Positions 8,961 through 28,184 are shown, counted from the first letter of the stretch. The stretch is 32,000 nucleotides of DNA from Bdellovibrionales bacterium (GCA_963692945.1 OY843585.1:990001-1022000), one strand, 5' to 3'. Translations and numbers: made by a program. Notes: generated by a model from the sequence alone, not told the origin.

Positions 8961-11900
8961 TCAAAAAAATATAATCCTAGTTTTAAAATCTCTATTTTGT
9001 TTGACTTTGATTTCTTGTGTAGGAAAAGAGAAACAGATTCTTTCAGACACGGAATACGCTTCAAACGCTCCGTTTATTGTGGAGCAAATCACAAAAGCTG
9101 AAAATTCAGTTAAATCTATTAATTTTATTGAAAAAGATGGATTAAAAAATGCTTTTATTGTGAATCTTTCAACCTGTTTAAAAGATTCTTTTAAAAAGGA
9201 TAACTCTATACAAGAGACCCCTTTTGTTATTGAGTATGAAACCAATTTTGATAATGATGGAAAAACAGGTAAGAGAATAGAAAGAGTAGAAGTTACTTCT
9301 GATGTGAATGGTTGTATCCGATGGGAAGAAGAGTATAAATATAGATATGTTATTAAGCCCAAATGGATTGTCCTTACGAGAAGCATTAAAAAAGAAGAGG
9401 GGGGTTATTCTGGTCAAGTTGAAATTCCTTTGGCTGTAAATCCTTGGTTGAAAAGTAGTAATGAGGAGTTTCCAGAGGTTTTAGATTTAAGAAAAAATTA
9501 TTCTGAAAAATATTCTATCTTTAAGAAACTTCCTTATGAAAAAAAGGGATTAGAGTATTTATCCAGGAATGAAAGTTCAGAGTATCCTCAATTATGGGCT
9601 CCTGAGATAGGTTTACAGATTGAAACACAATTGCCAAAATTATCAGAGGAAAAACGATATCAAAATCCTAAGGAGTTATTAAAAAATTATCAATCCCTTT
9701 GCAATAGTGAACTTAAGGAAAATTGTTACAAACGGCACTTTAAACTCAACTTAACTATTCCTCTTCAATTGCGAACCTATGGGTTACAAAAAGATGTGGT
9801 GGATGAGATTGTCAAAGGAGGGTCTTATCATGTGAAATTACAATTGCTCGCTATTCCTGATATTAATAAGAAGTTTTATCGTATACATGAAAATATTTGT
9901 GCAGAAGATATTCATATTAGTAATTCAGCAGATAATAGTTATAGAGCAAAGAGCATCAATATATCTTGTGATATTCCTATCTCTTATTTTAGCCAACATG
10001 CCAATTATAAAATTGCTGTAGAAATTGATCCAAAAGTAGGTCTTCCTTTTACAAAATTTCAAGGGATTTATACAATCAATTTATCTCAAGAAATTAAAAG
10101 TGGATCTCTTTATACTTATAATATTGATAGCAGTTTAGAAAATGATTATACAAAGATTCCTGTAAAGACTCCAATTATACAAAATAGAAATATTAAATAC
10201 ATTTATGATGCTATTAACAACAATAGAAAAAAGATCTCTCGTGAAGGCGCATCTTTTTCTGAAGATAAACAATTATCTCGTTTAGGATTTCATTCCGTTC
10301 ATTTGGATGTGGAATTAAAAAAAATGACATTTGCTAATGTTGAAAATGATGAAAATTGTTCAAATAATGAATCCGTTGTAAAAAGAAGAGTTAATTTTAT
10401 TGGGAAAGCTTGTATTAAGGATGTGTTGACAGATTATAAAAACAAAGGAATAGCCTTTAGAGTTTTTATAGAAGATGAACAAAATGGACACAAAATAAGA
10501 GAAGTGTTTTCTGATACTACGAAAAGAACAATACCTAAAGCAGATGCAGAAGGGTGTATATCTTGGCCTGATTCTATAGAGCATAAAAACTTTGATAGGC
10601 AAGTTTATATGCCTAGAAAAGTACATTTTTTATCGGAAGAATTAAATTTATATGGAACTGTTGGTGTTGCAGTCACTCCTTGGCAAAGAGCCTTTCAGGC
10701 CTATCAAGATATTTCTCAATTGAGTCGTGATGAGATACGAACAGATACTAAAGGTGTTAAGAAGCCAAAATTGATTGTTAATCAGTTTAAAAGTGTTAAT
10801 TTATTTCCTTCTTATGTATTAGATAAATTTTTAAATATCCATTTATTTCATAGTTTGTATTTCTTATTTCAACCTTTTATATTAAGACATGATAATATTG
10901 CTTTAGGTAGAGAGGGTAGAGCAAGAGAGGTTTTACGAGATGGTTATTATATTTTACGAGTGCTTCTTTTAAGAAACCCTCAGGAGACTGGAGATTTTTC
11001 TCGGGTTGTAAAACCTGAAACTGTTGAGAATGTACGAAAGTCTATCTTGCTTAGAGAACATAATAAAGATAATCAGTATATAGAAGAGATTGCAAAGGGA
11101 GATATTAAAGGGCAATATATCACTCATATTGATACAGTGATTAAGGCAAAAGCCAATTTCGTTAATGTTTATGTTCCTCTTCATTTTACAAAAGAACAGT
11201 TTTTTTATTTGGCCTCAAGAAACTTGATATCTATTCAAGTTATTCCTGTTGATCCTGAAGGATTTAAATTTAAAGAATTGAATGAGCAAAGAGAAATTTG
11301 TGAAATTGATTTTGATAAAACAGAATGGAAACCATTTTTTGATCATGATCTTATTGTGAAACCGTCAGTAGGGGTTTTTCAAATTCAAAACTGGACAAAT
11401 TGGAATATTTTACAACCTATGAATGAAGAAAAATTCAATACGGACATGATTATAGATGCAGATGAAGAAGGTAAGAAATACAGACATTTTACATTATCAC
11501 AAGATTCTTCTAGTGTTGATATAAAGCCAGCAGAGATTGAGCCTAGTGTATTACAGCAAGGATATAATGATTGTGTAGGTGAGGAATCAGATGGGGAGAA
11601 ATTTAATATTGAATCTTGTCATCCTTCTAAAGTTACAGATAAGAGTGAAATTACTATTGAGGGATACTATCAAGAAAAAGTTGAGAAAATTATATTAGAA
11701 AAAGCAAAAACAGTGAAAAAAGATATTAGTTCGGAAGATCTTATAGATAGTTTTGCTGAAATAAATGCCTTAAAAGTTGTTAATTTAGGAGAAGAAAGTG
11801 GGAATAAATTTTTAAAAAATTTAAAATATTCTCATAATGAAACTTATCTTTTGGATGAGAATGGTACTATTAATTACAAAATTTTGGATTTTATTTCTAA

Positions 11901-13950
11901 TAAAAAAATAAAAAAAGAAATGGAACAAAAAATTGAGAAAGATTGTGAGATGTCATCTCTAACATCTTTTCTTTTAAAATACATGATCACTGAAGCTTTA
12001 AAAACCTGTATGAGTGAATCTATAGAGGGTTACCTTGTTGATTGGATAAATCAGCAAAGTGAAGATAAAGATGTCCAGCATGAAAAATTTAGAGATTTTC
12101 TAGATGAACAAGTCAGTGATTCTGAAATTACACATACATTCAAATGGATTATGCAGAAGCAGGAATTGCCTAATGCATTATCTTCTTTGTTATTAGATAG
12201 AGTCTCTCTCTCTTTAGAAACCGTTATTGATAAAGGTGTTACTGATAAATATCAAAAAGAGATAGAAACCTTAACTTTTGGAAAATCTTTATGTGGATTT
12301 TGGTTTAAATCTTTTTTTGAAAAATATTTAACATCTCAACAAATGAGAACAGTTTATACAGATTATATTAAAAAATTTGATTATTATAAAGTTTTAGAAA
12401 ATGAGAGTTTACTTGATACTGAAAAAGGTGATTTTCTTATTAGTTTTATGAAAATGCTTTCTGATGGAGAGACGATGGGGGAAAGAGATCTAAAAAAATG
12501 TCATCTCAATTATAGTCAATGTGTTTTTTTAGATCATTGTAAGTTAAGGGATCATACTCGTCATTCAAAATCTTATTGTAATAAAGTCTCAGGGTTAGAA
12601 GATTTAAGTTGTTTAAAAGTTGTAAAAGAAGAATGTAAAAAAAATCCATCCACTTCTATTTGTCAAAAAAATATAGAACCTAACAGGTGTCATTACTCTT
12701 TAAATCATTTTTGTGGAATCAATTCCAGTCATAGTATGTGTCAGAGATACTACTCAAGATGTTTAACAGAATATTATTCTTGTACAGATATTCCTACAAT
12801 TAGAAAAGATTTTGAAAAATCTAAAAATGAGATAGAGTTATTTCGTATGCAACCTAGTCAATCTTTATTGGATGCCTATTTTGATTTTAAATTTTATAAG
12901 TCTAAAAATGTTAAATCTCCTCTATTAGAGAGTTGTTTAGAAAATCCATTTCGTTTTTTTCAATTAGAATCTAAAATGTTCATTGAGAAAATATCTGATG
13001 ATTCAGCTACTTATGTGGGAGGGTTTTCAGGGAATCTTGTGGTGAGTGGAAGTTTTTCTACAGGTTCCTATATGAATTGGACTTCCCAAAGAGGCTCTTC
13101 TTTAGGTTTGAAACATGGGACGAGTCTTGGTTTTGGATTACTTGGTTCAAATATTACAGCCATGGAAGTGAGTCTTTCTAAAAATGTTTCTTCTAATATC
13201 TCTAATAGTGGTCGTAGAGCTATAGATATAAGGGTTGGTGAAGGAGCTTTTTTAGTTATTTCTAGAGCCACATTTGATATTAATGTTACTAAATTTAAAA
13301 AATGTTTAGTTATAAAACCAAATCCACAGGCTTTTTTTGGTAAACTTGTAGATGGAATATGGGAACCTTTTGACGATGATGTTTGGAATGATGATTTTAC
13401 AAGAAACTCTTATAAAAAAATTCTTATATCTCGTCCAGGATTGATGATTTGTAGTCCAAAAAAAGAGCTGGATGAGAGTGATCCTGAAACAATAAGAGAA
13501 AATTACTATTACATTTCTCAATCTATGGTTGATCCTAGTAACTCTCAATTTTTGAATTTATATGATTTAGCAAATAGACCTTTTATGGCTGTTTTAAGAG
13601 GGCGAAGAGAGTTTCTGAATTTCTTTAATGGAATGAAAATAGTTATGGAAGGAAAGTCAGGAGATGTTGATAAAAATGCTCTTCATAATACTTTACCATC
13701 TAATATGTTTGGTGAATATCCTCATCCTGTTGAAGAAGCTTTATCTTTGAGTCTTGCTAGAAGAGAGTTTGGAAAGACAGGATTTTATCCAGGAGTTTTT
13801 ACTTATGCTTACTCTAGAGACAATTTCAATCGTGAGTTAACAAAAGATAGTGCTTGGATGAGTAAATTGTTTAAATCCTATGAAAGTATCAATTATGGAT
13901 TACCTTTAGTTACACCTTCTGAAAATAAAATACCTACAATTTCTTATTGA
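8947..13950 (+). CDS. Giant lipoprotein of unknown function (1667 aa from ATG 8947)
   Basis: Uninterrupted 5-kb frame. The internal ATG at 8947 gives MYLFNQKNIILVLKSLFCLTLISCVGKEKQ, a signal peptide with lipobox L-I-S-C. The track start at 8866 would lie inside the upstream gene. It contains a 12-Cys cluster (CHLNYSQCVFLDHC...YYSC, about 12490-12790). No recognisable domain. Confidence 0.75.
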   Translation: MYLFNQKNIILVLKSLFCLTLISCVGKEKQILSDTEYASNAPFIVEQITKAENSVKSINFIEKDGLKNAFIVNLSTCLKDSFKKDNSIQETPFVIEYETNFDNDGKTGKRIERVEVTSDVNGCIRWEEEYKYRYVIKPKWIVLTRSIKKEEGGYSGQVEIPLAVNPWLKSSNEEFPEVLDLRKNYSEKYSIFKKLPYEKKGLEYLSRNESSEYPQLWAPEIGLQIETQLPKLSEEKRYQNPKELLKNYQSLCNSELKENCYKRHFKLNLTIPLQLRTYGLQKDVVDEIVKGGSYHVKLQLLAIPDINKKFYRIHENICAEDIHISNSADNSYRAKSINISCDIPISYFSQHANYKIAVEIDPKVGLPFTKFQGIYTINLSQEIKSGSLYTYNIDSSLENDYTKIPVKTPIIQNRNIKYIYDAINNNRKKISREGASFSEDKQLSRLGFHSVHLDVELKKMTFANVENDENCSNNESVVKRRVNFIGKACIKDVLTDYKNKGIAFRVFIEDEQNGHKIREVFSDTTKRTIPKADAEGCISWPDSIEHKNFDRQVYMPRKVHFLSEELNLYGTVGVAVTPWQRAFQAYQDISQLSRDEIRTDTKGVKKPKLIVNQFKSVNLFPSYVLDKFLNIHLFHSLYFLFQPFILRHDNIALGREGRAREVLRDGYYILRVLLLRNPQETGDFSRVVKPETVENVRKSILLREHNKDNQYIEEIAKGDIKGQYITHIDTVIKAKANFVNVYVPLHFTKEQFFYLASRNLISIQVIPVDPEGFKFKELNEQREICEIDFDKTEWKPFFDHDLIVKPSVGVFQIQNWTNWNILQPMNEEKFNTDMIIDADEEGKKYRHFTLSQDSSSVDIKPAEIEPSVLQQGYNDCVGEESDGEKFNIESCHPSKVTDKSEITIEGYYQEKVEKIILEKAKTVKKDISSEDLIDSFAEINALKVVNLGEESGNKFLKNLKYSHNETYLLDENGTINYKILDFISNKKIKKEMEQKIEKDCEMSSLTSFLLKYMITEALKTCMSESIEGYLVDWINQQSEDKDVQHEKFRDFLDEQVSDSEITHTFKWIMQKQELPNALSSLLLDRVSLSLETVIDKGVTDKYQKEIETLTFGKSLCGFWFKSFFEKYLTSQQMRTVYTDYIKKFDYYKVLENESLLDTEKGDFLISFMKMLSDGETMGERDLKKCHLNYSQCVFLDHCKLRDHTRHSKSYCNKVSGLEDLSCLKVVKEECKKNPSTSICQKNIEPNRCHYSLNHFCGINSSHSMCQRYYSRCLTEYYSCTDIPTIRKDFEKSKNEIELFRMQPSQSLLDAYFDFKFYKSKNVKSPLLESCLENPFRFFQLESKMFIEKISDDSATYVGGFSGNLVVSGSFSTGSYMNWTSQRGSSLGLKHGTSLGFGLLGSNITAMEVSLSKNVSSNISNSGRRAIDIRVGEGAFLVISRATFDINVTKFKKCLVIKPNPQAFFGKLVDGIWEPFDDDVWNDDFTRNSYKKILISRPGLMICSPKKELDESDPETIRENYYYISQSMVDPSNSQFLNLYDLANRPFMAVLRGRREFLNFFNGMKIVMEGKSGDVDKNALHNTLPSNMFGEYPHPVEEALSLSLARREFGKTGFYPGVFTYAYSRDNFNRELTKDSAWMSKLFKSYESINYGLPLVTPSENKIPTISY

Positions 13951-15299: not shown

Positions 15300-15453
15300 T
15301 TTTTGCGTTAAAGTTCCCTGTGTTGGCTGCGACTTTAGGAGCAGGGAATACAGGGCATAAAATCTGTGTAAGATTTTATGTGATAGAAGTAAGGACTTTA
15401 TTTGCCAAGATGTATTAAGTTAGTTTAAAAGCATATTAGTTTAATTATTTTAT

Positions 15454-15530
15454 GCGGGTGTAGCTCAGCTGGCTAGAGCGCAACCTTGCCAAGGTTGAGG
15501 TCGTGGGTTCGAATCCCATCACCCGCTCCA
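15454..15530 (+). tRNA. tRNA-Gly (anticodon GCC), CCA encoded
   Basis: Hand-folded cloverleaf: acceptor GCGGGTG/CACCCGC, D arm GCTC-AGCTGGCTA-GAGC, anticodon arm CAACC-TTGCCAA-GGTTG, T arm GTGGG-TTCGAAT-CCCAT, discriminator T, CCA. Confidence 0.95.
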
Positions 15531-16797: not shown

Positions 16798-17053
16798 GAT
16801 ATCAATGCTCTTTAATAATTAATGTAATATGTTTTTTTATGCAACCATTCCAAAACCGAATACCCTTTATAAAGCTCTTCTATGGCTAAATCCTCATAAA
16901 ATTTCACCATAGAAGCTGTAGGCTTAGGAAACTCAGCATCTTCAATATTATCAATAATATTCCCTTTTCAATGAAGCAAAATGAACTATGGGGCATTGCA
17001 TAAAAATAAAAAAAAACCTAATGTTTTCAATGCTTATAAGGGAAAAAGGTTCA

Positions 17054-17065
17054 CCCCCCCCCCCC
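17054..17065. repeat. Poly-C homopolymer (12 C) in a divergent intergenic region
   Basis: ggttca-cccccccccccc-gattttt, about 70 nt upstream of ATG 17136 and about 260 nt upstream of the DarT-macro start. It stands out in a roughly 30% GC sequence. Confidence 0.9.
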
Positions 17066-17135
17066 GATTTTTCGTTTGATTTTTTTAATAACTATGTACA
17101 AAATCTGATTTAGATCTTTAAAAAAGGAGAGAGTT

Positions 17136-17780
17136 ATGAAATTTATGTATAGTTTAAAAATTTTTATTTTATCTGTTTTTATATTGCCTCATTTTTTTGT
17201 TTATGGAAACAGTGATGAATCTAAAGAAATTGAAACATTTAATGTAGTAAAGGAACGGATTTATCAAACACTAAAGTATGGTGATGTAAAAGAATTTGAG
17301 AAAGTGATAAGTGAGAACTCAGACTTGCTTTCTAAAGATCATATAAAACTTTTGTTACAAGAGTTTGTAGAGAGTGACGAGTTTTTAAAATTAACTATTG
17401 ATGACAGAGCAAATTCTCCTACAGGTAGGGGTCTCTATACTACAACAGCAAATGCTATAGCAGCTTTTTATGGTATAGGAGCTTTCGCAGTTGTTAGCAC
17501 TGTATTTAGTCCTTATATTGATTTTGAAGGTTTTTTAGGAATGTCAGGATATTTAGCGGATCTTTCAGAAGTAGGTGTTCTAGTTATGCTAACCTTGGTA
17601 CCAATATACAACAATTCATCACTACATACATTCCTCAAAAGAGCATTTATAGATAGAAATGTTTTACCAAAGCTATCATCAGATATAGAAAGGATATCAC
17701 ATATAAATCAGTTTAAAAAAGTAAAAGATTTTTACAAAGACAAAAGACAAAAATGTAAAGCCGTTTTTTCTTCGTCTTAA
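17136..17780 (+). CDS. Hypothetical exported/membrane protein (214 aa)
   Basis: ATG preceded by AAGGAGAGAG. Signal peptide MKFMYSLKIFILSVFILPHFFVYG|NS. Two central hydrophobic helices (AIAAFYGIGAFAVVSTVF, VGVLVMLTLVPIY). C-terminus is ...KRQKCKAVFSSS. Confidence 0.7.
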   Translation: MKFMYSLKIFILSVFILPHFFVYGNSDESKEIETFNVVKERIYQTLKYGDVKEFEKVISENSDLLSKDHIKLLLQEFVESDEFLKLTIDDRANSPTGRGLYTTTANAIAAFYGIGAFAVVSTVFSPYIDFEGFLGMSGYLADLSEVGVLVMLTLVPIYNNSSLHTFLKRAFIDRNVLPKLSSDIERISHINQFKKVKDFYKDKRQKCKAVFSSS

Positions 17781-17802
17781 TGATTTACTTTTTTTTAGTA
17801 CT

Positions 17803-18109
17803 CAATATTTGTTAAAGTGAATTTTTTTGTTCCAGCTAATAAAGGTTCCATTACATTGCGAACAACTTTTTGAGGGCTTATATCTTCATACCCATGAAGT
17901 CGTCCACATTGAAAGCAAATAGATTGTCCTGTTTCACGGTGAACAAAGTACCGATAGAGTCCTTGATGAGTGTTTGCTGTTGGCATTGTTAAACCCGGCA
18001 CATCAGCAAAAGAAATAGAAAATCTCTCTTCCCAAATATGAGAGAGTTTTTTCCTAAACTATCTAAAGCTTGGCTGATACCTAAAACAAAATGTCTTTCT
18101 GGAGATTGA
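17803..18109 (-). pseudogene. Internal fragment of the purine nucleoside phosphorylase gene (duplicate of 19803-20116)
   Basis: About 307 nt aligns by eye with 19803-20116, with scattered substitutions, a 1-nt deletion (ttttttcctaaac vs ttttttccctaaac) and a 6-nt deletion. The track ORF 17795..18001 is the open part of this fragment. Confidence 0.85.
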
Positions 18110-18130
18110 TTGGAGCAGTTATAAAAAAAA

Positions 18131-18148
18131 GGAAGCCTATAGGCTTCC
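18131..18148 (-). terminator. Rho-independent terminator downstream of deoC
   Basis: The palindrome ggaagcctataggcttcc is flanked by a 9-A run on + (a T-run on the - strand) and by ttttt on the other side. It lies 42 nt after the deoC stop. Confidence 0.75.
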
Positions 18149-18189
18149 TTTTTAAAATCAATATTTTATTGAAAAAGTGAATTGTTTTT

Positions 18190-19032
18190 TTATCTTTTAC
18201 TTACAATTTCATCTCTCTCTTCTACAACTGGTACTCCAGCACTTAAACCTAAACGATTGGCTCCATTTACAAGCATATCTGATGCTGTTTGAAGATCTTT
18301 CATTCCTCCGCTGGCTTTGATTTCCATATGGTCAGAAATACTGGCTCTCATGAGTCGTACATTTCTTACAGTAGCTACTCCTTCAGAAAAACCAGTTGAG
18401 GTTTTTACAAAATGAGCTCCAGCTGTTTCTACGATTTGTGAAGCAGTAACAATTTCTTCTTCAGTCAATAATCCTGTCTCTAATATAACCTTAACTGGAA
18501 GTGGAGTTGCTTCTACGACGGCACGAATGTCTTTTTCCGTGTATTCAAAATCTCTATCTTTAATAGAACCTACATTGATAACCATATCTAATTCGTCTGC
18601 TCCTTTTTTATAAGCATCTTTTGCTTCAGCCACTTTACTAGCTGTAGTAGGAGAACCTGTTGGGAATCCTATCACTGTAGCAATGAGAGGTTTATGTTTG
18701 TTTTCTGACACTTTGTCTAGCATGTTTTTTACAAGAGGAACGCGACAAGGGCTTACACAAACTGCTTTAAATTTGTGGAGTAAAGCTCCATCAACAAGAT
18801 TTTCAACATCTTGTCTAGTAGATTGAGGTTTAAGGACAGTTTGATCCATAGTATCTTCAATATTGTTTATGACTGTATCTTTTTTTATATTTGCTTGTTT
18901 TGGCTCTGTTTTATCTACAGCTCTTATAATTTTTTGAGCATCGGCTTCAAAGGTTTTTTTACAAAATTTACTAGCTTGAACGGCAGGGGTTAAGACAATA
19001 AGGCCTCCCCATAAAAATAAAGTTGTTTTCAT
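18190..19032 (-). CDS. deoC: Deoxyribose-phosphate aldolase with an N-terminal export leader
   Basis: DeoC core: DQTVLKPQSTRQDVENL, AVCVSP, TVIGFPTGS, ELDMVINVG, VKVILETGLL, FVKTSTGF, IKASGG. The ATG is preceded by AAGGAGA. About 60 extra N-terminal residues: MKTTLFLWGGLIVLTPAVQA|SKFCKKTFEAD... Confidence 0.9.
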   Translation of the reverse strand: MKTTLFLWGGLIVLTPAVQASKFCKKTFEADAQKIIRAVDKTEPKQANIKKDTVINNIEDTMDQTVLKPQSTRQDVENLVDGALLHKFKAVCVSPCRVPLVKNMLDKVSENKHKPLIATVIGFPTGSPTTASKVAEAKDAYKKGADELDMVINVGSIKDRDFEYTEKDIRAVVEATPLPVKVILETGLLTEEEIVTASQIVETAGAHFVKTSTGFSEGVATVRNVRLMRASISDHMEIKASGGMKDLQTASDMLVNGANRLGLSAGVPVVEERDEIVSKR

Positions 19033-19296
19033 AATTTTCTCCTTATATTTATTTTTTATGTGAAGGTTATACTCTTTAGTTTTTAAAAAATCAAGAAAAA
19101 AATAAGTTTTTGAGGAAAGTTCTAGAAAATGATTAAACTATAGTGTTTAGGCTATTTTTTCTCTGAATTGAGTCATAATAAGAAAGACTAATAACTTCTT
19201 TATCCCAAGTTTTTGCATTATCTTTTTTTGTTTTCTTTTATATAAAATTTAATTTTTTAAAGTATTTCTTTATTTAAGCCATACAATTAGTTTAAT

Positions 19297-20322
19297 TTAG
19301 TGAGTATTAAATTCTTTATTACAGAAACATAAAAAACCTTGAAGCATTTTTTCACTATGTATTTTAACATGCTTTAACATGTCTTCATCTTTTATTTCTG
19401 AACCTTTTAAGCCACTTCCAGGGTTAGAGATCATAGAAAAACCTGTTACTTCGGCTCCAGCATGTTTTAAAGCAATGGCTTCCCAAACTGTGGACATACC
19501 TACAACATCTAATCCCCATTGAGCAAAAAGTTTTATTTCTGCTGGAGTTTCTAAATTAGGACCAGGAACGCAAATATAAGTTCCTTCTTGGACATGAACT
19601 CCTGCCATTTGAAGTTCATTTATAATTTTATTTCGTGTGTTCTCACTGTAAATTTTTTCCATATGTGGGAATCGATCTCCTAAAGGTTCTCCATTATGAT
19701 CAGTGGGGTTGGGTCCAGTTAGAGGACTTTTTCCTGTAAAATTAACATGATCTTTTAAAGCAATGATAGTTCCTATAGAAAGGTCTGATCTTAATCCTCC
19801 TCCAATATTTGTTAAAGTGAATTTTTTTGTCCCAGCTAATAAAGGTTCCATCACATTGCGAACAACTTTTTGAGGACTTATATCTTCATACCCATGAAGT
19901 CGTCCACATTGAAAACAAATAGATTTTTCTGTTTCACGGTGAACAAAGTATCGGTAGAGTCCTTGATGAGTGTTTGCTGTTGGCATTGTTAAGCCCGGCA
20001 CATCAGAAAAAGAAATAGAAAATCTTTCTTCCCAAATATGAGAGAGTTTTTTCCCTAAACTATCTAAAGCTTGGCTGATACCTGAACCTAAAACAAAATG
20101 TCTTTCTGGAGATTGAATTTTATGTTTTTTATATTGTTCTTTTAAAAAATCTGCACCTGTTTGTGATGTAAAGGAATTTTTACATGTATTTGGAATTCTA
20201 TCTATAGGTTTTGCATTTACAAATGTTGAAAAAGAAATAAAACTAAGAATGCAATATAAATAAAAAAAATTTATCTTAAGCCTTTTTATTCTTTTGAAAA
20301 ATTCTATTATTGGTTTTATCAT
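19297..20322 (-). CDS. punA: Purine nucleoside phosphorylase (trimeric PunA/PNP family) with an N-terminal export leader
   Basis: Family motifs: VLGSGIS, GRLHGYED, TNIGGGL, GPNLETPAE, VGMSTVWE. About 50 extra N-terminal residues with a hydrophobic core, then ...STFVNA|KPIDRIPNTCKNSFTSQ. Confidence 0.88.
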   Translation of the reverse strand: MIKPIIEFFKRIKRLKINFFYLYCILSFISFSTFVNAKPIDRIPNTCKNSFTSQTGADFLKEQYKKHKIQSPERHFVLGSGISQALDSLGKKLSHIWEERFSISFSDVPGLTMPTANTHQGLYRYFVHRETEKSICFQCGRLHGYEDISPQKVVRNVMEPLLAGTKKFTLTNIGGGLRSDLSIGTIIALKDHVNFTGKSPLTGPNPTDHNGEPLGDRFPHMEKIYSENTRNKIINELQMAGVHVQEGTYICVPGPNLETPAEIKLFAQWGLDVVGMSTVWEAIALKHAGAEVTGFSMISNPGSGLKGSEIKDEDMLKHVKIHSEKMLQGFLCFCNKEFNTH

Positions 20323-20650
20323 ATCATCTCTAGATTTTATAATTTCTTACAAGGTTCTTTATGAGGAAAAAGATTTTCATATATTTGACTTTTAGAAGTT
20401 CCAAGCGATAAGAGTGGAAATAGGAATATACAGATTAAAAAAGTCTTAAAATTAAAGAGCGACATTACGAAGAATTTGACCAAAAAATAGGCAAAAAATC
20501 AAGAATAAATTGCAAAATAGGGAGTTTTTTTCAGAAATATTCAAAAAATTGATTATTTTTTAAGAAGAATCACATGAGCTTAATTGTAAAAAAAGAAAAC
20601 TATTTTTTTTTGAGGGTTTTTTTAAAATCCATTTTTTCGTTTTGTGAAAT

Positions 20651-22066
20651 CTATAAAACAGTTTCAATAAGTTTAGGTATTTCTTTAGGGGAGGATTTAG
20701 AAAAACCAATAGCTTGTATGAAAAATTCTTCAGCTTCTTTAAGAGAGGATTTTTTACTATAGTAAAAAATAGCAAGAGGATGTCCTTTCTTTACATAATC
20801 TCCTAAACGGACATTCATTTCTATACCCACATTATGATTTATAACATCTTCTTTTTGTAATCGTCCGGCACCTAAGAGAACAGAGGCCATACCTATATTT
20901 GTAGTGTTCATGCTACCGATATATCCATCTTGAGGAGCAAGAATTTGACGTTTGGTTGAAGAGTTTTTTGGCAACTTGAGTTGACAAGTCCCTTGAGCTT
21001 TACACATTTTTTCAAATAATTCAAAAGCCAATCCACTTTCTAAACTGCTTTCAGCCATAGCGTAACCATGTCTAAAAGTTTTAACTTTATTTGTTATGTG
21101 AAGCATACGAGCTGTTAACTGTAAACTGAGTTCTTTTGTGCTGTTGTAATAATCTGCATGTTCAGCAGGAATTTCATTTTTTAAGATAGTTAAAACTTCT
21201 TGGACTTCTAAAGAATTTCCAATAAATCGTCCAAGAGGTTGATCCATATTAGTAATAAGACCAAGAAATTTAACATCATTGTATTCAGCAATATGTTTTA
21301 ATTCCTCTGCAAGTTGAATAGCATCTTGTTTGGTTTTCATAAAACCACCAGAACCAAATTTCACATCCATTACAAGAGCATCTAATCCTTCAGAAAGTTT
21401 TTTACTCATAATACTTGCTGCAATAAGAGGTTGAGAACTTACTGTTGCTGTTACATCTCTTAAAGCATAAATTTTCTTATCTGCAGGGGCTATGTTTTCA
21501 GTTTGCCCAGCTATAAAAACTCCAATTTCTTTTATTTGTTTTTTCATTTCTTTTTCAGAAAGATTGATATTAAATCCTGGCAAGCTTTCTAACTTATCTA
21601 AAGTTCCACCTGTGTGACCTAACCCTCTTCCAGAAATCATAGGAACTGCAACGCCACAGGATGCACAAAGTGGTGCTAAAATTAAAGAGACTTTATCTCC
21701 AACACCTCCTGTACTGTGTTTATCAACAATGGGTATATTAAGGTCTTTAAAATTTAAAACTTTTCCAGATTGAGTCATGGCTTTTGTGAGAAAACCTGTT
21801 TCTTCTCTAGAAAGTCCATTCAAACGAACAGACATAGCCCAAGCAGACATTTGGTAGTCAGGAATTTTTCCTTTAGTGAAAGCTTGAACAATATAAGAAA
21901 TCTCTTCTGCACTATGAGATTTTCCTAAGGCTTTATTGTCAATCAATTGTACCATATCAAAGGTTTTTTTACTGGCAAAAGTATCTGAACAAGGACTCGC
22001 AAAAGAAACAGAGCTTAAAAAAGAGATTAAAGGAATCCATCCAATATATTTTAATAACAACTTCAC
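20651..22066 (-). CDS. deoA: Thymidine / pyrimidine-nucleoside phosphorylase with an N-terminal export leader
   Basis: Family motifs: IPDYQMSAWAM, DKHSTGGVGDKVSLILAPL, SGRGLGHTGGTLDKLE. The track start at 22132 is a TTG with no RBS. GTG at 22066 follows AAGGAG-TGAA and gives MKLLLKYIGWIPLISFLSSVSFA|SPCSDTFASK. Confidence 0.85.
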   Translation of the reverse strand: MKLLLKYIGWIPLISFLSSVSFASPCSDTFASKKTFDMVQLIDNKALGKSHSAEEISYIVQAFTKGKIPDYQMSAWAMSVRLNGLSREETGFLTKAMTQSGKVLNFKDLNIPIVDKHSTGGVGDKVSLILAPLCASCGVAVPMISGRGLGHTGGTLDKLESLPGFNINLSEKEMKKQIKEIGVFIAGQTENIAPADKKIYALRDVTATVSSQPLIAASIMSKKLSEGLDALVMDVKFGSGGFMKTKQDAIQLAEELKHIAEYNDVKFLGLITNMDQPLGRFIGNSLEVQEVLTILKNEIPAEHADYYNSTKELSLQLTARMLHITNKVKTFRHGYAMAESSLESGLAFELFEKMCKAQGTCQLKLPKNSSTKRQILAPQDGYIGSMNTTNIGMASVLLGAGRLQKEDVINHNVGIEMNVRLGDYVKKGHPLAIFYYSKKSSLKEAEEFFIQAIGFSKSSPKEIPKLIETVL

Positions 22067-22109
22067 TTCACTCCTTGAATAACCATAAAAAAACGTAACC
22101 AATGTGTAC

Positions 22110-22200
22110 AATAAAAAAACTTTAAAAATCAATAAAAAACTCTAAAAATCAATAAAAAACTCTAAAAATTAATAAAAAACTCTAAAAATCAATAAAAAAC
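22110..22200. repeat. 20-bp tandem repeat, about 4.5 copies, in the divergent deoA / mutase promoter region
   Basis: The unit aataaaaaactctaaaaatc is repeated head to tail (22110-22130 is a 21-nt variant, then 22131, 22151 and 22171 start full units, and 22191 starts a partial one). Confidence 0.85.
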
Positions 22201-22258
22201 ATTTACTTTTAAGTTGTTTTTTTGTAATGATTTATTTTTATTGTAGGGAAATTTAGTA

Positions 22259-23758
22259 ATGTTTAGTAAAAAATCTTTATTTGTATTAGGGCTTATTTGT
22301 TTTTCTTATTTGTCTTATTCAAATTCCTGTTTAGATACATTTAAAAATAAAGACGAAAAAAAAGTTGTTAATCTTGATATTTTTAAAGGTAATGATATTA
22401 GAGGGGTTTTTTCAAAAGATTTTGATTCTGATTTTGCTAAAGATCTAGGGAAATCTATTGTATCTTTTTCTTCAAATGAATTATCTATTTCTAATCCAAA
22501 AATTTTAATAGGTTATGATGCTAGATTGAGTAGTCCTGAATTAACAAAAGCTCTTTCAGAGACTTTACTTAAACAAGGTGCTACTGTATCTGTGGTTGGA
22601 CTTATTCCTACTCCTTTAGCTTATTTTTTACTTCATCATTATGACTATACGGCTACAGTGATTGTAACTGCTAGCCATAACCCTGTTGAATACAATGGAT
22701 TTAAAATTATGTTTAATAATAAATATGACAGATTTAATGTTATATCAGATATAAAGGATATTTTTAAAAATAAAGACTTTTTACCAAATGAAGACTCTGG
22801 CGAAATGGTGAAATTAGATCCTTATACTCCTTATATTAATTCTTTAAAAAAGGAATTTCCTAATTTAAAGCCTATTCCTTTTGTGGTGGATGCAGGAAAT
22901 GGGTCTGCAGGGCTTTTGGCAAAAAAAGCATTTAAAGCTTTAGGTCTTAACCCTCACTATCTTTTTACAGAGCCTGATGGGACTTTTCCTAATCATCATC
23001 CTGATCCTACAAAGGAATCAAATTTAAAAGACCTTAAACAGAGAGTAGCAGAAACTGAAAGTGTTTTTGGAGTAGGGTTTGATGGAGATGGAGATAGATT
23101 AGGTATTGTAACTTCAAAAAATAAATTTATTCAATCGGATGAATTTGCTTATATGTTTTTACCAACTCTTTTGGGCGATCCTAAAAATTCTAAAACCCTC
23201 ATAGCGGATGTTAAAGTTTCAAACTGGTATTTTGAAAAAGCTCAAGAGATGAATGCTAATGTCATTACATCTAGAACAGGGTATAGTTTTTTAAGGGAAA
23301 ATATGAGTAAAAATAAGGCTTCATTGGCTATGGAGTTGAGTGGACATATTATGTTTAATGATCGTCCTAATAGGGGATTTGACGATGCTCTTTATAATAT
23401 TTTACGATTTATAGAGTTAATAGGAGATAAAAAAGGATCTATAGAAAGTCTTTTGCCTAAAGTAAACACTGTAAAAACTAATGAAATAAGAATCAAATTA
23501 AATTTAAAAGATATTAAAAAATCTTTAGATTATTTAAAAACTCATTTAGATACAACCAAAGAATCTTATCTAGATATAGATGGAATACGAGTTACAAGAG
23601 GCGATTCTTGGTTTTTAGTTCGTCATTCTCAAACAGAAAATGTATTAAATCTTCGTTTTGAATCTTCATCTGAAAAAAAGGTTTTAAATTTGATTGAAGA
23701 GATTTCTAAAATTATGAACATCAAAATTCCTAAAGAAGAAATAGACATCTATCATTAA
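22259..23758 (+). CDS. Alpha-D-phosphohexomutase family protein (PMM/PGM type; candidate phosphopentomutase) with an N-terminal export leader
   Basis: Active-site loop TASHNPVEYNGFK, metal loop GFDGDGDR, and IFKGNDIRG near the domain start. About 35 extra N-terminal residues: MFSKKSLFVLGLICFSYLSYS|NSCLDTFKNK. Confidence 0.88.
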   Translation: MFSKKSLFVLGLICFSYLSYSNSCLDTFKNKDEKKVVNLDIFKGNDIRGVFSKDFDSDFAKDLGKSIVSFSSNELSISNPKILIGYDARLSSPELTKALSETLLKQGATVSVVGLIPTPLAYFLLHHYDYTATVIVTASHNPVEYNGFKIMFNNKYDRFNVISDIKDIFKNKDFLPNEDSGEMVKLDPYTPYINSLKKEFPNLKPIPFVVDAGNGSAGLLAKKAFKALGLNPHYLFTEPDGTFPNHHPDPTKESNLKDLKQRVAETESVFGVGFDGDGDRLGIVTSKNKFIQSDEFAYMFLPTLLGDPKNSKTLIADVKVSNWYFEKAQEMNANVITSRTGYSFLRENMSKNKASLAMELSGHIMFNDRPNRGFDDALYNILRFIELIGDKKGSIESLLPKVNTVKTNEIRIKLNLKDIKKSLDYLKTHLDTTKESYLDIDGIRVTRGDSWFLVRHSQTENVLNLRFESSSEKKVLNLIEEISKIMNIKIPKEEIDIYH

Positions 23759-23778
23759 TTACAAAACTCTCGTTCTTC

Positions 23779-23845
23779 CCCCTCCTTGTTTTCTGACCTT
23801 TCATCGTAAGAGGGACACTCTTCAAGTTCAGAAAACAAGGAGGGG
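23779..23845. repeat. Long hairpin element (18-bp perfect stem, 31-nt loop) just after the mutase stop
   Basis: cccctccttgttttctga (23779-23796) pairs with tcagaaaacaaggagggg (23828-23845). No T-run follows. A related copy lies inverted at 28767-28839. Confidence 0.85.
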
Positions 23846-23861
23846 ATATTCCTAGAGAAAA

Positions 23862-24276
23862 ACTACGGTTTTTCGCATGGGTAAGTTCTTCAAATCTCGT
23901 TAAAATAAGAGTTACTAACAGATTATGTTTGAACTAGAGAAAAACTACGGTTTTTCGCATGGGTAAGTTCTTCAAATCTCGTGAAAATAAAAGATTTAAA
24001 CATAGAGAAAACCTACTGGTTTTCGCAAACGGTTTTTCGTATGGATGATCTATTCAAATCTCGTTAAAATAAGAGTTACTAACAGGTTATGTTTGAACTA
24101 GAGTTTTATTATTTGAACTAGAGAAAAATTTCTGTTTTTCGCAAACGGTTTTTCGTATGGATGATCTATTCAAATCTCGTTAAAATAAGAGTTACTAACA
24201 GATTATGTTTGAACTAGAGTTTTATTATTTGAACTAGAGAAAAACTTCTGTTTTTCGCAACTCTGGTTTTTGTAGA
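23862..24276. repeat. Degenerate tandem repeat array (units of 72, 68, 116 and 116 nt plus a partial), each with a GAAAAAC-N4-GTTTTTC mini-hairpin
   Basis: Units begin ctagagaaaaac at 23862, 23934, 24002 (variant), 24118 and 24234. They share the core ...ggtttttcg..ttcaaatctcgttaaaataagagttactaacag.ttatgtttgaa. Confidence 0.8.
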
Positions 24277-26823
24277 TTACTTTTTCTTAAGGAATTTATT
24301 GTTGTACTGATCAATGATTTCTGCATCATCTGGTGCTGCTTCATTATCCGTTAGTTGGGCTGTCGGAGCAGGTTGTAGAGATAGAGGGAAAAATCCATTT
24401 TCCGGATCTTGTTTCCATGCTGATCCTGCTATGGCTTCATAGAGAATAAGTTGAGCATTTCCAGTATCTGAGTCAACCAATGCAATCCCTGATTGCCAGC
24501 TACTATAACCTCCTTCAGTATAAGCAACGGATTTATAAGTAGAGGTTCCCACATTTACAGTTCCTCCTAAGATACTTGGTTGATGAGAATCTCCTATTAC
24601 ACTTTGTTCAACCGCTTTTGCATGGGAAGGCATTCCTCCCTTAGCTCCGTTTGCTCCTTTATGTCCATGGAAGTGTAAGTACACTGGATTGTGTTGAGGA
24701 CCTACAATAAAAGGTTCACCAGTTTGTAGAACTTTTACTCGGTTTGGATCTACAATATAAAGATTACTTTTCATTTTTTTATGCTGAAGTTTAGGTTCTA
24801 AACCATCATGAAGTGTTTTTCTATGGTGGTTAAACATATATTCAAAAACATTTACATTTAAATGAGATCTAGCAAAAAGCAATTCAATAAGAAATTCTCT
24901 GTTAGGCATATCTTTTATAGCATCGGGATTGTCTAAAAGATTTTCTATCCAATAATGATGATTACTATCAACAAGTACAATATTTAAATCAGGAAATTTT
25001 TGTAAAAATCCATTCATAGTTTGTATAAGACCTTCTATCTCATCTTTTATATTCAATTCTCCTCTTTTGTATTTCTCTAATTTTGAATTTAATTTATGAG
25101 ATTCATGATGATTATGAGAACTCCCGTCAAGAGCATCATGAAGAACTAAAGTTTTAATATTGTGGGTTCTCATAATGTCTTCATGCACTTTTAAAAGAAG
25201 TTGATTGGCATTATAATCATGGAGATCTCCAGTAACCATAGTGTCTATGTTTCTTTTTATTATTTTGTCATTAGTGTATAAATGATTTAAATCTATAAAA
25301 CCAGGTATCTGATTTTGTTCAACAGAAGGGTCTTGTTTTGAATTGCCAAGATATTTTATAGGACGAACATAGAAAAACCCTGGAAGTCCCCCTTGATTTG
25401 GTCCAGATTTTTTATCAGCTAATTCAAGGATTAAGGCTCCCATAGCATGACGATTTTTTGCTAATTCACTCACTCTCAAAGAGGCTGGATTTTTAGAAGG
25501 GTAGAGGGGAGTTGTAATAGATCCAGGAGCCCATAAACCATGAGTGATATCTTTATTATCTGCTGTAGCGACAGTTTGATAGCGTTGCTGAGGACTACCT
25601 ATAATCTGAATTTGACCTCTTTTTCCCTGACTATAAGTATCTAGAGAAGCAAAAGGATTTGCATTTTTAGGCATGACAGGAAGAGCCCAGATTCTTAAAT
25701 AATCACTAAAGTTTATAGTGTGAGTCACAATACGTACTTTATCTGGCATACTCAAAAGATAAGGATCAATTCCATCTGTTTGTCCATTAACAGGAAGAAG
25801 TATAATAGGGACTTTTTTTCGTGTTGCATATTTTAACAAGCTTTCAAAAAAGTCTCTGTTTGTTGGAATTCCTGCTGTTACAGTAGAAACAATAGCTCCT
25901 TTGGCTTGCAAAACCATATCTGCTGTTTGTTGATCCGATTCTAGACTAAATTGATTGGTGTCAATGTAGTTGAGAAAAGCAGAAGGAGTTAATTTTTTTG
26001 CTAGCATTTCTACTTCCTCCATTCCATTTTCAAAAAGAACAGGAATATGTGCTTCTGATTTTTTATTAAGAGAAACCTTATTTCCTAACATAACACTCAG
26101 GTGAAGTTCTTTTTTTAAATATTTTGGTAAAATGTTGTTGTCTTCATCATGTTTTTCTACATACACCTGATAAAGTCTTTTGATGTCTGGGGTTTTGTTT
26201 TTCCATTTTATGTCATCACTTTTTATAGAAGCTATAAAAGCTTTTGCTATACTTTTTTTTAATTTTGTAATGTATGTTGGATTTTCTTCTTTGACTTGAT
26301 TCCAAAATATCATTGGAATAGAATCACCAATCAGTTCTTCTAATTTTTGTTTCGGCATTTTTAAAAATAAAGATATATCTCTAATACGAGGTATAACTAA
26401 AGTTTTACTAACCATAGTTAATATAGCTAGTTCAGCTTTTTTTAAAATATTTTGTGAAGTAAGGGTTTTATCAGCAGTCAAAAGGGCTGCTGAACGTAAA
26501 GCGGCTTGCTGTAGGTTTATTTTTGCGGTTGCATTTTCTTTTGATGCAGGAGGTGTTGTATCTTTTGCATCTTTTGCGGTTGCATTTTCTTTTGATGCAG
26601 GAGGTGTTTTATCTTTTGCATCTTTTGCATTTGCATCTTCTTTTGATGCAGGAGGTGTTTTATCTTTTGCATCTTTTGCGGTTGCATCTTCTTTTGATGT
26701 AGGAGGTGTTTTATCTTTTGCATCTTTTGCATCTTCTTTACTAAAAGTGTCTTTACATTTCTTATTTTCTGCATAGGAGGGAAAAGCCAATAATATAAGA
26801 ATTAAAACTAAAGTTTCTTTCAT
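24277..26823 (-). CDS. Secreted 848-aa protein with a 17-aa tandem-repeat linker and a C-terminal calcineurin-like metallophosphoesterase motif set
   Basis: Signal peptide MKETLVLILILLAFPSYA|ENKKCKDTF. About 4 copies of KDAKDKTPPASKEDA.A. The C-terminal third carries an ordered motif series: VTGDLHD, LHDALDG, VDSNHHYW, HFHGHKG, IGDSHQP (compare DxH, GDxxD, GNHE, GH, GHxH). The start ATG overlaps the upstream stop (ATGA). Confidence 0.8.
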   Translation of the reverse strand: MKETLVLILILLAFPSYAENKKCKDTFSKEDAKDAKDKTPPTSKEDATAKDAKDKTPPASKEDANAKDAKDKTPPASKENATAKDAKDTTPPASKENATAKINLQQAALRSAALLTADKTLTSQNILKKAELAILTMVSKTLVIPRIRDISLFLKMPKQKLEELIGDSIPMIFWNQVKEENPTYITKLKKSIAKAFIASIKSDDIKWKNKTPDIKRLYQVYVEKHDEDNNILPKYLKKELHLSVMLGNKVSLNKKSEAHIPVLFENGMEEVEMLAKKLTPSAFLNYIDTNQFSLESDQQTADMVLQAKGAIVSTVTAGIPTNRDFFESLLKYATRKKVPIILLPVNGQTDGIDPYLLSMPDKVRIVTHTINFSDYLRIWALPVMPKNANPFASLDTYSQGKRGQIQIIGSPQQRYQTVATADNKDITHGLWAPGSITTPLYPSKNPASLRVSELAKNRHAMGALILELADKKSGPNQGGLPGFFYVRPIKYLGNSKQDPSVEQNQIPGFIDLNHLYTNDKIIKRNIDTMVTGDLHDYNANQLLLKVHEDIMRTHNIKTLVLHDALDGSSHNHHESHKLNSKLEKYKRGELNIKDEIEGLIQTMNGFLQKFPDLNIVLVDSNHHYWIENLLDNPDAIKDMPNREFLIELLFARSHLNVNVFEYMFNHHRKTLHDGLEPKLQHKKMKSNLYIVDPNRVKVLQTGEPFIVGPQHNPVYLHFHGHKGANGAKGGMPSHAKAVEQSVIGDSHQPSILGGTVNVGTSTYKSVAYTEGGYSSWQSGIALVDSDTGNAQLILYEAIAGSAWKQDPENGFFPLSLQPAPTAQLTDNEAAPDDAEIIDQYNNKFLKKK
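26521..26733 (-). repeat. Coding 51-nt tandem repeat (about 4 copies)
   Basis: ttttgcggttgcat(c/t)ttcttttgatgcaggaggtgtt(t/g)tatcttttgcatc is repeated. It encodes the K/D/A/P/T-rich linker at residues 31-101. Confidence 0.9.
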
Positions 26824-28184
26824 GATGCTTTGCCTGTGAAAGTATTCTTACAATTTTTTTCATTTGTTTCATTTTCATCAGCTGGTTTAAAATTTTCAGT
26901 ATTAACTAACATTTTTCCAGTTTTATTATTATCTGTTTCTTTATTGTTAGCTTGAGAAGGGTTGTTTGATTCCTTTGTTGGTTTTGTGCTTTTAGGTGCT
27001 TCCTTATCAGCCTTTTTTTTAGCAATTTTTTTATTATTGTTTTTATATATTGAAGAGATACTCCTAGTTTGACTGGTTTGTAAATATTTTATATTGAAAC
27101 GATTGATGTTTTTTGGATGCATGTTTAATTCTTCTATTAATTCTACATCTGTTATAGGTCTAAAAAAACCATTATTAAAAACAAGAATACGATAACCATC
27201 AAAAGTTTTATCATCTTCTATATACTTATCTCGTCCAGCATGAATAAATACAAATTTTATTTTGTGCCTATATAAATTTTCTTGAGAGGATTTTTGTACT
27301 TTTTTAAAAAGTGCATCGGCGTATTCAGGATGGTCTTCAGCTACAATCATAAGATGTTTGTTCTCTCTTTCTCCTTGGATAGATTTTTGTTTTTCAACAT
27401 GAATAAAGCCTTTTCCTTTATTTCTGATAGGTTTAAGAGAAAGCTGTTTAACTTCTATATCAATAGCTCCTACTTTTTTATCAAGCAAGGTTCGTCCATA
27501 TGTACGACTATCTACTGAACTTAAAGCATGAAGTCTGAATTGGTGAGAAATTTGGGTTAAATGGTCGTTTTTTAAAAGAGTCTCAAAGAACTGATCAAAA
27601 TTAGCATGGTTTTGTGCTCTTGCTGTATGTATGGCTAAGTCTCCTTTTAACGGATTTTTCATGAGCCAAGATGCGATATCATAGGTTAAACCATAAAAGT
27701 TCTTATTAGTTTTTTGCTTTTTTTGCCTGTCAAAAGCTAATAATAAATCTTCAACGAGATAATTTTTATTTTCATGAAATCTAAATCTGTCATAAGAGGT
27801 GGATTCATTTATTGTATAATAACCAGGGATAATGGTTAGAGGGCGATCTTTAAAAAGAAAATCCTCTTTTAGTTTAACTTCTTCCAAAGTTTTAATTTTT
27901 CCCGCTAAGCCTAAAAGATGTTCCATTTGATGAAATTCTTCAATAGTGATTGGGAAGGAGGAAGGTATTTTTTCATGTATTTCTGTGTATTGAATTGCAC
28001 TGTGTAAAGATTCTATTTTTTCTAGTATGTAGTAAGGTTGCCAAGGACTGTTAATCTCAGACATAAGCGTTCCATCAAAATCAGTAACAAGAACAGTATG
28101 ACCAGCGTACCCATCTCCTTTTTTACCAGCAATAGCTAATGGAATAAGGGTTACAATAAATAAAAAAATAGTTGTTCTAAACAT
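26820..28184 (-). CDS. Secreted 454-aa protein with an N-terminal HAD-type DxDxT motif (putative phosphatase/nucleotidase) and a low-complexity C-terminal tail
   Basis: Signal peptide MFRTTIFLFIVTLIPLAIA|GKK. VLVTDFDGTLM is a textbook HAD motif I. Later motifs are only tentatively placed (IHTAR, VAEDHPEYAD). The K/N/E-rich tail ends ...NEKNCKNTFTGKAS. Confidence 0.75.
   Translation of the reverse strand: MFRTTIFLFIVTLIPLAIAGKKGDGYAGHTVLVTDFDGTLMSEINSPWQPYYILEKIESLHSAIQYTEIHEKIPSSFPITIEEFHQMEHLLGLAGKIKTLEEVKLKEDFLFKDRPLTIIPGYYTINESTSYDRFRFHENKNYLVEDLLLAFDRQKKQKTNKNFYGLTYDIASWLMKNPLKGDLAIHTARAQNHANFDQFFETLLKNDHLTQISHQFRLHALSSVDSRTYGRTLLDKKVGAIDIEVKQLSLKPIRNKGKGFIHVEKQKSIQGERENKHLMIVAEDHPEYADALFKKVQKSSQENLYRHKIKFVFIHAGRDKYIEDDKTFDGYRILVFNNGFFRPITDVELIEELNMHPKNINRFNIKYLQTSQTRSISSIYKNNNKKIAKKKADKEAPKSTKPTKESNNPSQANNKETDNNKTGKMLVNTENFKPADENETNEKNCKNTFTGKAS

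Follow-up and report, generated by a model that had tools for sequence, protein, structure and literature searches.

A C-x3-F motif at the mature termini of exported proteins is best explained as a lineage-specific tag in a small clade of uncultured bacteria

Short motifs that fix exported proteins in place have been productive entry points into the biology of the cell envelope: the lipobox, LPXTG and PEP-CTERM tags each exposed dedicated envelope machinery and became predictors of surface proteomes. In lipoproteins, which are handled by Lgt, LspA and Lnt, a single functional cysteine soon after the signal peptide stands ahead of a disordered tether that leads to a soluble domain. In the LPXTG/sortase, PEP-CTERM/exosortase, GlyGly-CTERM/rhombosortase and MYXO-CTERM systems, a short, lineage-restricted terminal motif is found on unrelated exported proteins, often past a low-complexity spacer. 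Both descriptions also fit the element analysed here, a cysteine followed at +4 by a phenylalanine (C-x3-F), which recurs in a 32,000-nucleotide stretch of one strand from a Bdellovibrionales bacterium (GCA_963692945.1 OY843585.1:990001-1022000; this whole stretch, with a G+C content of ~30%, is referred to below as the window). We find that C-x3-F is best explained as a lineage-specific terminal tag on Sec-exported proteins.

Tag instances were located by a six-frame scan of the window for C-x-x-x-F. Every instance listed in the initial annotation of this DNA proved to be real and in frame, at the coordinates given below and in eight protein families. That annotation had also ascribed the motif to every exported protein in the 11-kb stretch 17136-28184. 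This holds there, where seven proteins have an N-terminal signal-peptide-like sequence and all of them (7/7) are tagged, but it fails just outside that interval, at an outer membrane protein (OMP)-like gene (7764-8960) and at a lipoprotein gene with the lipobox LISC (8947-13950). In the following list a slash marks the predicted signal peptidase I (SPase I) site.

18190..19032, minus strand: exported deoxyribose-phosphate aldolase DeoC, 280 amino acids (aa); ...PAVQA/S, tag CKKTF at 18963-18949, a linker of ~32 aa, and the DeoC domain from residue ~60
19297..20322, minus strand: exported purine nucleoside phosphorylase (PNP), 341 aa; ...FVNA/K, tag CKNSF at 20184-20170
20651..22066, minus strand: exported thymidine/pyrimidine-nucleoside phosphorylase (TP); probable GTG start at 22066, ...VSFA/S, tag CSDTF at 21991-21977
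22259..23758, plus strand: exported PGM/PMM-family mutase, 499 aa; ...LSYS/N, tag CLDTF at 22328-22342
24277..26823, minus strand: 848-aa exported protein; ...PSYA/E, tag CKDTF at 26757-26743, then a K/D/P/T-rich linker of ~100 aa
26820..28184, minus strand: 454-aa exported protein; signal peptide, fold to residue ~370, N/K/E-rich linker of ~75 aa, C-terminal CKNTFTGKAS-stop at 26852-26838
17136..17780, plus strand: 214-aa protein; signal peptide, two hydrophobic segments, C-terminal CKAVFSSS-stop at 17754-17768
1826..7547, minus strand: six tandem signal-peptide ankyrin genes; ends ...NETS[FS][ILV]S[KR]CR[ED][IS]F-stop
1826-1840, 2341-2355, 3423-3437, 3938-3952, 5161-5175 and 6081-6095, minus strand: the ankyrin tails, C-R-[ED]-[IS]-F-stop
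7764..8960, plus strand: OMP-like exported protein, 398 aa, an untagged contrast lacking C-x3-F
8947..13950, plus strand: giant canonical lipoprotein, an untagged contrast with the lipobox L-I-S-C right behind the hydrophobic h-region

Pfam and NCBIfam identified DeoC, PNP, TP and PGM/PMM, with catalytic domains that begin 55-62 residues into the open reading frames (ORFs), and Pfam, NCBIfam and the PDB gave no match for the 848-aa, 454-aa and 214-aa proteins. The four enzymes, with the PGM-family mutase presumably acting as a pentomutase, would form an extracytoplasmic nucleoside-catabolic module. Putative His/Asp-rich metallophosphatase-like motifs can be picked out in the 848-aa family, and a candidate HAD-type DxDxT motif, read by eye, in the 454-aa family (LVTDFDGTL; DFDGT or DFDET across the family). 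The 214-aa protein had been put forward as a weaker instance and is indeed the weakest, with no orthologue found in which conservation could be tested. The ankyrin tails do bear the tag, but they belong to a six-gene tandem family of paralogues, two of them disrupted, in which the DNA past the stop is also conserved; they therefore count as one family.

No tag lies more than about 10 residues from a mature terminus, which bears out the proposal that it is position-specific and can occupy either end of an exported protein. Its layout is signal peptide with SPase I site, 1-9 residues, C-x3-F, linker and domain, or the mirror image of domain, linker, C-x3-F, 0-5 residues and stop. N-terminal copies account for 17 of the 24 tabulated tags, and at the C-terminus the residues between Phe and stop are polar (F-stop, FSSS-stop, FTGKAS-stop, FKGKAS-stop and FARSK-stop). 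The linker between tag and fold measures 5 to ~100 residues, is of low complexity and rich in K/E/P/T/N, and varies in length between orthologues and strains. In the AlphaFold2 (AF2) model of the mutase, the domain has a predicted local distance difference test score (pLDDT) above 90 and residues 1-39 are of low confidence; the tag is outside the folded domain, on a flexible linker. Across the 24 tags, K is enriched at -2, -1, +1, +5 and +7, and positions +1 to +3 hold K/L/E, a variable residue and T, S or I, respectively. Residue -1 is K in 7 tags, N in 4, P in 3, S in 3, F in 2, T in 2, D in 2 and Q in 1. In the N-terminal copies, 6-15 residues separate the h-region from the cysteine, and good AxA-type sites precede it.

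To follow the tag outside the window, we reached relatives through the members of the 848-aa family and through a search with the mutase, which together gave five further lineages plus a near-identical strain (L001). The 848-aa family has three members among 5.8 billion clustered proteins, and a metagenome search with it returned one 3-kb fragment without the N-terminus; in the other strain the protein has 845 aa rather than 848. Identities to the relatives are 68-72% for L083, 64% for L088 and L087, 59% for P0128, 50% for L084 and 46% for L086. Contigs of the source and its relatives extend up to 1.15-1.56 Mb, which suggests that the genomes of this clade are small. The six genomes are represented by the 1.56-Mb NCBI/ENA contig that carries P0124 and by the ENA contigs ERZ26050970 contig_1 (1.19 Mb), ERZ26167614 contig_1 (1.30 Mb), ERZ19650279 s572.ctg000583l (1.15 Mb), ERZ26695812 contig_1 (240 kb) and ERZ25071928 contig_1 (555 kb). 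Beyond the clade, the named best matches to the cytoplasmic mutase paralogues are metagenome-assembled genomes (MAGs) of Bdellovibrionales and Oligoflexia, at 45-49% identity, and the best match to TP is a Bdellovibrionales MAG at 49%; in a genome-contig search with TP, all relatives were at or below 49% identity. On these matches, the placement of the clade in a phylum is tentative.

The tag was found in every orthologue of the six families compared, with the following sequences.

DeoC: CEKIF (L083), CKSNF (L086), CVRIF (L088)
PNP: CEKSF (L083), CKKTF (L088), CKKSF (P0244)
TP: CKKTF (L083), CKAAF (L086)
Mutase: CLDQF, CLDLF, CLDSF, CHNEF, CTSIF
848-aa family: CKSSF (P0002), CEGEF (P0003)
454-aa family, C-terminal: CKSTFKGKAS-stop (L083), CKNSFARSK-stop (L084)

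In alignments of these four enzyme families and two unknown families, covering up to six lineages and 46-100% identity, the Cys and the Phe at +4 are essentially all that stays invariant from the initiator Met up to the catalytic domain, or within the C-terminal tail, so that the relatives conserve exactly the two residues that define the motif. In the 848-aa family, C23 and F27 are invariant and the remainder is unconserved up to residue 135. In the 454-aa family, C445, K446 and F449 are invariant while the linker ranges from 20 to 75 aa. Both TGT and TGC are used for the cysteine and both TTT and TTC for the phenylalanine, and the three middle codons are free to vary. These synonymous and variable codons indicate that the tag is conserved at the protein level and not as DNA, in agreement with the initial view that it is not a DNA repeat.

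Chance does not account for this distribution. The background was taken from 145 proteins (44,227 aa) encoded in the window and at related loci, in which Cys makes up ~1.1% and Phe ~5.7% of residues and the probability of CxxxF is 6.5e-4 per position. Away from the termini the motif is found at background, in cytoplasmic as in exported proteins: 16 internal matches were observed in non-exported proteins against 15.2 expected, and 6 in exported proteins against 9.8 expected. By contrast, a CxxxF in the terminal zone was present in 20 of 44 signal-peptide proteins versus 3 of 84 others (Fisher p = 1e-8, with a heuristic signal-peptide classifier and a set that includes non-independent orthologues). 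Of the 10 signal-peptide proteins in the window itself, 8 have the tag, where the null is 0.022 per protein (p ~2e-12). The whole CxxxF excess is terminal, and chance is excluded. Given the crude classifier and the non-independent orthologues, the comparative evidence is stronger than the statistics.

We next considered whether the N-terminal extensions are made. An AAGGAG Shine-Dalgarno sequence precedes the upstream ATG of DeoC, with none before the internal Met62, and AGGAG precedes GTG 22066 of TP; strong Shine-Dalgarno sequences also stand before the upstream ATG of the 214-aa gene and of the ATG-started ankyrin gene. No such sequence precedes the internal Met codons that correspond to the canonical starts of DeoC and TP. 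On this pattern the extensions are most likely translated. The TTG at 22132, originally taken as the start of TP, gives way to GTG 22066 as the most likely start. Judged by eye and with a hydrophobicity heuristic, all the N-terminally tagged proteins appear to have a basic n-region, an h-region that is hydrophobic and a small residue at each of -3 and -1 (VQA/S, VNA/K, SFA/S, SYA/E, ANA/I and SQA/N).

Consistent with a link between export and tag, all 6 members with a signal peptide among 120 mutase homologues are tagged, 1-3 residues past the predicted cleavage site, whereas the ~114 cytoplasmic homologues have neither signal peptide nor tag, apart from two chance MFCxxIF matches at a conserved IFRANDIRG start. 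The source genome itself encodes a tag-less cytoplasmic mutase paralogue on the same 1.56-Mb contig, as does the genome of L087. The TP extension was absent from all 33 TP loci examined in other bacteria, and a terminal CxxxF from all 120 generic ankyrin homologues. Export is not enough for tagging. Every canonical lipoprotein of these loci is untagged, as are other ankyrins with a signal peptide, a glucosaminidase, a deacetylase and the OMP-like, BamB-, MlaC- and SurA-like proteins. The tag marks an exported subset, made up of one ankyrin family, two proteins of unknown family and the nucleoside-catabolic enzymes that have been relocated.

The cysteine of the tag stands largely alone. It is the only Cys of the mature mutase in six lineages, of the 848-aa family in three lineages (769-848 aa) and of the 454-aa family in three lineages, and also of the 214-aa protein, the intact 300-aa ankyrin protein and a 99-aa protein of L083. 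In DeoC the tag Cys is accompanied by one CxxxC pair, and in TP by two close pairs. Cytoplasmic mutase homologues, in comparison, have a median of 5 Cys, and in untagged exported neighbours the count is mostly zero or even. Exported proteins in the oxidising periplasm are known to avoid unpaired cysteines. An added, invariant and unpaired Cys in proteins from which the others have been purged points to thiol chemistry as the likely core of the function, in the form of an intermolecular disulfide or a covalent modification; an intramolecular disulfide between tag and domain is impossible where the tag Cys is the sole Cys.

Our preferred reading is a covalent tether through this lone thiol, formed by a disulfide to an envelope partner or by S-lipidation, to which we assign a probability of roughly 45%. 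Sec export and SPase I cleavage would expose the terminal peptide, which would then be recognised through the Phe at +4 and its basic context. The thiol could be coupled to an envelope component, either by a disulfide to a partner protein or by an S-lipidating enzyme that reads Phe and context, and otherwise soluble proteins would thereby be held on a leash at the cell envelope or surface. The tether is favoured because three observations fit it: the linkers, the lone cysteine and the PNPs exported by other bacteria (P0334 and P0373), which are canonical lipoproteins with their Cys at the same place as the tag. Several points weigh against it. No attachment chemistry, partner or processing enzyme was identified in the genome pieces covered, and periplasmic enzymes normally need no tether. 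PNP has 6 Cys in total, an even number, and the odd-one-out rule is therefore not universal. The clade is represented by only about six uncultured genomes, and every locus was found by way of homologues of the tagged cluster, which makes the sample biased and the orthologues non-independent. The assignment of signal peptides and cleavage sites relied on inspection by eye and a crude home-made hydrophobicity heuristic rather than on SignalP.

There are several alternatives to the tether. It is unlikely, although it would suit a tag that is terminal, exposed and confined to effector-like or relocated proteins rather than housekeeping envelope proteins, that C-x3-F acts as a non-covalent sorting or secretion signal, read by a receptor or secretion system that would carry the tagged subset over the outer membrane or deliver it to the surface, to vesicles or to a host or prey cell. 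Such a signal leaves unexplained why the lone Cys is invariant and other cysteines are purged, and why the linkers are long and variable in length; moreover, the translocation signals known to us are each tied to one terminus. A released protein might instead be S-acylated by the enzymes of a host or prey cell and anchored in that cell's membranes, like palmitoylated or prenylated effectors. S-palmitoylation has no fixed position, and the effectors SspH2 and SseI use a Cys near the terminus. Tags at either end, a polybasic context, a lone Cys and small genomes (1.15-1.56 Mb) that encode secreted ankyrins would all agree with host or prey lipidation, which we nevertheless regard as quite improbable: a catabolic pathway of four to six enzymes placed across foreign membranes is metabolically odd, the proteins have Sec signal peptides and not type III or type IV secretion signals, and a distance of 4 to 9 residues from Cys to C-terminus together with a charged middle does not make a CaaX or C(x)3X signal. 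We give similarly little credence to disulfide-linked oligomerisation without anchoring, as homodimers, a pathway complex or a redox switch. One free thiol per protein, and several tagged proteins within one pathway and gene cluster, are what this would predict; yet a single thiol permits dimers only, dimerisation needs no long leash, and neither the invariant Phe at +4 nor the unrelated ankyrin and 214-aa members are explained.

Two further possibilities concern the nature of the motif itself. Lgt and LspA of this clade could accept the tag as a non-canonical lipobox, with the mature protein beginning at the tag Cys, and the position of the Cys soon after a signal peptide and ahead of a disordered linker is just that of lipoproteins. 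This is very improbable, however, with K, N, P, S, F, T, D or Q at -1, a Cys 6-15 residues past the h-region, canonical boxes in the same genomes and copies at the C-terminus. Finally, the motif might not be a protein feature at all, but an operator in the DNA, belonging to a deo-type regulon whose 5' regions were misread as coding, or a compositional coincidence. It does lie upstream of the canonical enzyme starts, and the PNP site is inside an inverted repeat, ATGTAAA-N6-TTTACAT. Against this, the copies are all in frame and in the same orientation, and in six lineages the frames are open and show signal-peptide features; conservation is confined to the codons for Cys and Phe, with synonymous variants; Shine-Dalgarno sequences are found upstream and not at the internal Met; some copies are at the 3' ends of ORFs; and the internal frequency equals background with a terminal excess at p ~1e-8 or lower. 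An operator or a coincidence is effectively refuted.

Several features of the tagged genes were also recorded. The 454-aa and 848-aa genes, presumably co-transcribed, share the sequence ATGA (26820-26823), which holds the stop of the former and the start of the latter, and the pair is likewise adjacent in L083 (4-nt overlap) and L084 (2-nt gap); this shared adjacency suggests that the two are translationally coupled. The linker of the 848-aa protein contains 17-aa repeats, encoded by a 51-bp DNA repeat at 26521-26730, and the AF2 model of this protein (pLDDT 41) was unusable for fold comparison. The C-terminus of PNP (19297-19341) ends in ...FLCFCNKEFNTH and the stop, with a second CxxxF eight residues before the end. 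The same site reads CNRDF in L088, further from the end, and CNRDL in L083, and it is probably part of a conserved CFC element rather than a second tag. In the ankyrin array, whose genes are made of 99-bp repeats, four frames are open from signal peptide through tail, with an ATG start only in 2338-3240. The frames 7547-6081, 3899-3423 and 2302-1826 have no canonical start codon and begin I-I-[IK], where intact copies have I-M or I-I-M. The ankyrin gene at 4977-3938 is frameshifted and that at 6035-5208 has a stop just ahead of the conserved tail; these copies and those lacking a start codon are either decaying paralogues or assembly errors. Gene calls in the relatives need similar care: in the 1.15-Mb contig of L086 (746-5170), several short genes were called in place of FtsH and GlpX, probably through frameshift errors of long-read assembly, which makes caution advisable for gene calls in these ENA contigs.

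The surroundings of the cluster include repeats and an apparent island. A 214-bp unit is repeated 3.8 times at 14691-15530 with 97% identity, each unit containing a truncated tRNA-Gly-like copy (5' ~55 nt kept, 3' diverged), and the last unit runs into an intact tRNA-Gly(GCC) at 15454-15530; the array looks like the scar of repeated integration or excision at tRNA-Gly. The apparent island adjoins this tRNA at 15625-18001 and is absent from the synteny of L083, where the order is TP-DeoC-PNP-DoxX. Besides the gene for the 214-aa tagged membrane protein, it holds the following features.

15625-16797, minus strand: fused DarT (single-stranded DNA ADP-ribosyltransferase) and Macro domain protein
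17795-18001, minus strand: fragment of a PNP gene, 66 aa, 95% identical to residues 108-173 of the intact PNP

Between the divergent TP and PGM genes, a 20-bp tandem repeat (22109-22200; 4.6 copies, 94%) overlaps the spurious TTG-extended start of TP, and a 116-bp repeat (23994-24260; 2.3 copies) follows the mutase gene. The giant lipoprotein has 1,667 aa from a lipobox-compatible start (1,694-aa ORF) and ~1,660-1,670 aa in relatives. It is again found near the tagged cluster in L083 (19160-22310) and, with the OMP-like gene, in L087 (20144-21521). It has a Cys-rich block at about residues 1185-1279 and is, speculatively, a candidate docking partner for the tag.

DeoC, PNP, TP and PGM-family mutases are cytoplasmic in nearly all bacteria. 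Here they are duplicated or relocated, exported and tagged, with other cysteines mostly stripped (PNP, with its 6 Cys, being the exception), which suggests that these relatives of predatory bacteria, with their small genomes, break down nucleosides outside the cytoplasm. C-x3-F also provides a simple pattern for finding the tagged secretome of this clade.

Set beside described signals, the tag has partial counterparts and no match. In accordance with the initial statement that it was not recognised as a described signal, no NCBIfam or Pfam model matches it, and literature searches, among them a full-text one for CxxxF-type terms, returned no description of such a tag, or of this clade. The lipobox is one of its closest counterparts, and if the tag Cys were lipidated, both signals would leave the protein on a lipid leash. 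The lipobox, however, is [LVI][ASTVI][GAS]C at the end of the h-region and is N-terminal only, whereas the tag has a Phe at +4 and C-terminal copies. Canonical boxes (LISC, FTGC, VSSC and LLGC) are present in neighbouring genes of the same genomes, and in the window the giant lipoprotein at 8947..13950 demonstrates that the standard signal coexists with C-x3-F and is distinct from it. The initial conclusion that the motif is not a lipobox is upheld by the wrong residue at -1, the wrong distance from the h-region, the C-terminal copies (454-aa, 214-aa and ankyrin) and these coexisting boxes. The Bacteroidota lipoprotein export signal (LES) is another short polar motif by a Cys near the mature N-terminus, and it too selects an exported subset for a different destination. 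The LES depends on a +1 Cys that is lipidated and on an acidic run of the form K-(D/E)2; the tag has no lipobox, its conserved partner is the Phe at +4, and it has C-terminal copies.

With the tripartite CTERM signals the tag shares the logic of a common post-export fate for the proteins that carry it, and MYXO-CTERM even has an invariant Cys. The initial analogy with LPXTG, PEP-CTERM and GlyGly-CTERM is apt for this logic of a short terminal motif but goes no further: there is no transmembrane helix or basic cluster behind the motif, most copies are N-terminal and only a subset of exported proteins is tagged. No sortase, exosortase, rhombosortase or CPBP enzyme was seen in the ~20-kb genome pieces read. 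CaaX or C(x)3X prenylation and S-palmitoylation likewise use a terminal Cys in a flexible basic tail, the ankyrin Cys being fifth from the end, and S-acylation is similarly indifferent to which terminus it acts on. Prenylation signals of the CaaX or C(x)3X type were rejected for the charged middle residues (CREIF), a Cys that is 8th-10th from the end in the non-ankyrin C-terminal cases, N-terminal copies that are not prenylatable, and the use of Sec substrates. A C2H2 zinc finger (C-x2-4-C-x3-F-x5-L-x2-H-x3-5-H) was set aside too, the tag having a single Cys and no His pair.

For each known sorting or anchoring signal tested, the features that define it are missing from the tag. It is possible, though we advance the idea only tentatively, that it represents a third route for fixing exported proteins, beside the lipobox and the sortase-type systems, in which the thiol of a position-independent C-x3-F is coupled by a dedicated enzyme or partner to a lipid or envelope component; such a route could have let a whole nucleoside pathway move outside the cytoplasm on leashes. 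What sets C-x3-F apart from the lipobox, LPXTG and PEP-CTERM tags is that it lacks a membrane segment, can be placed at either end and centres on one unpaired Cys, and this points to an attachment or sorting chemistry not yet described.

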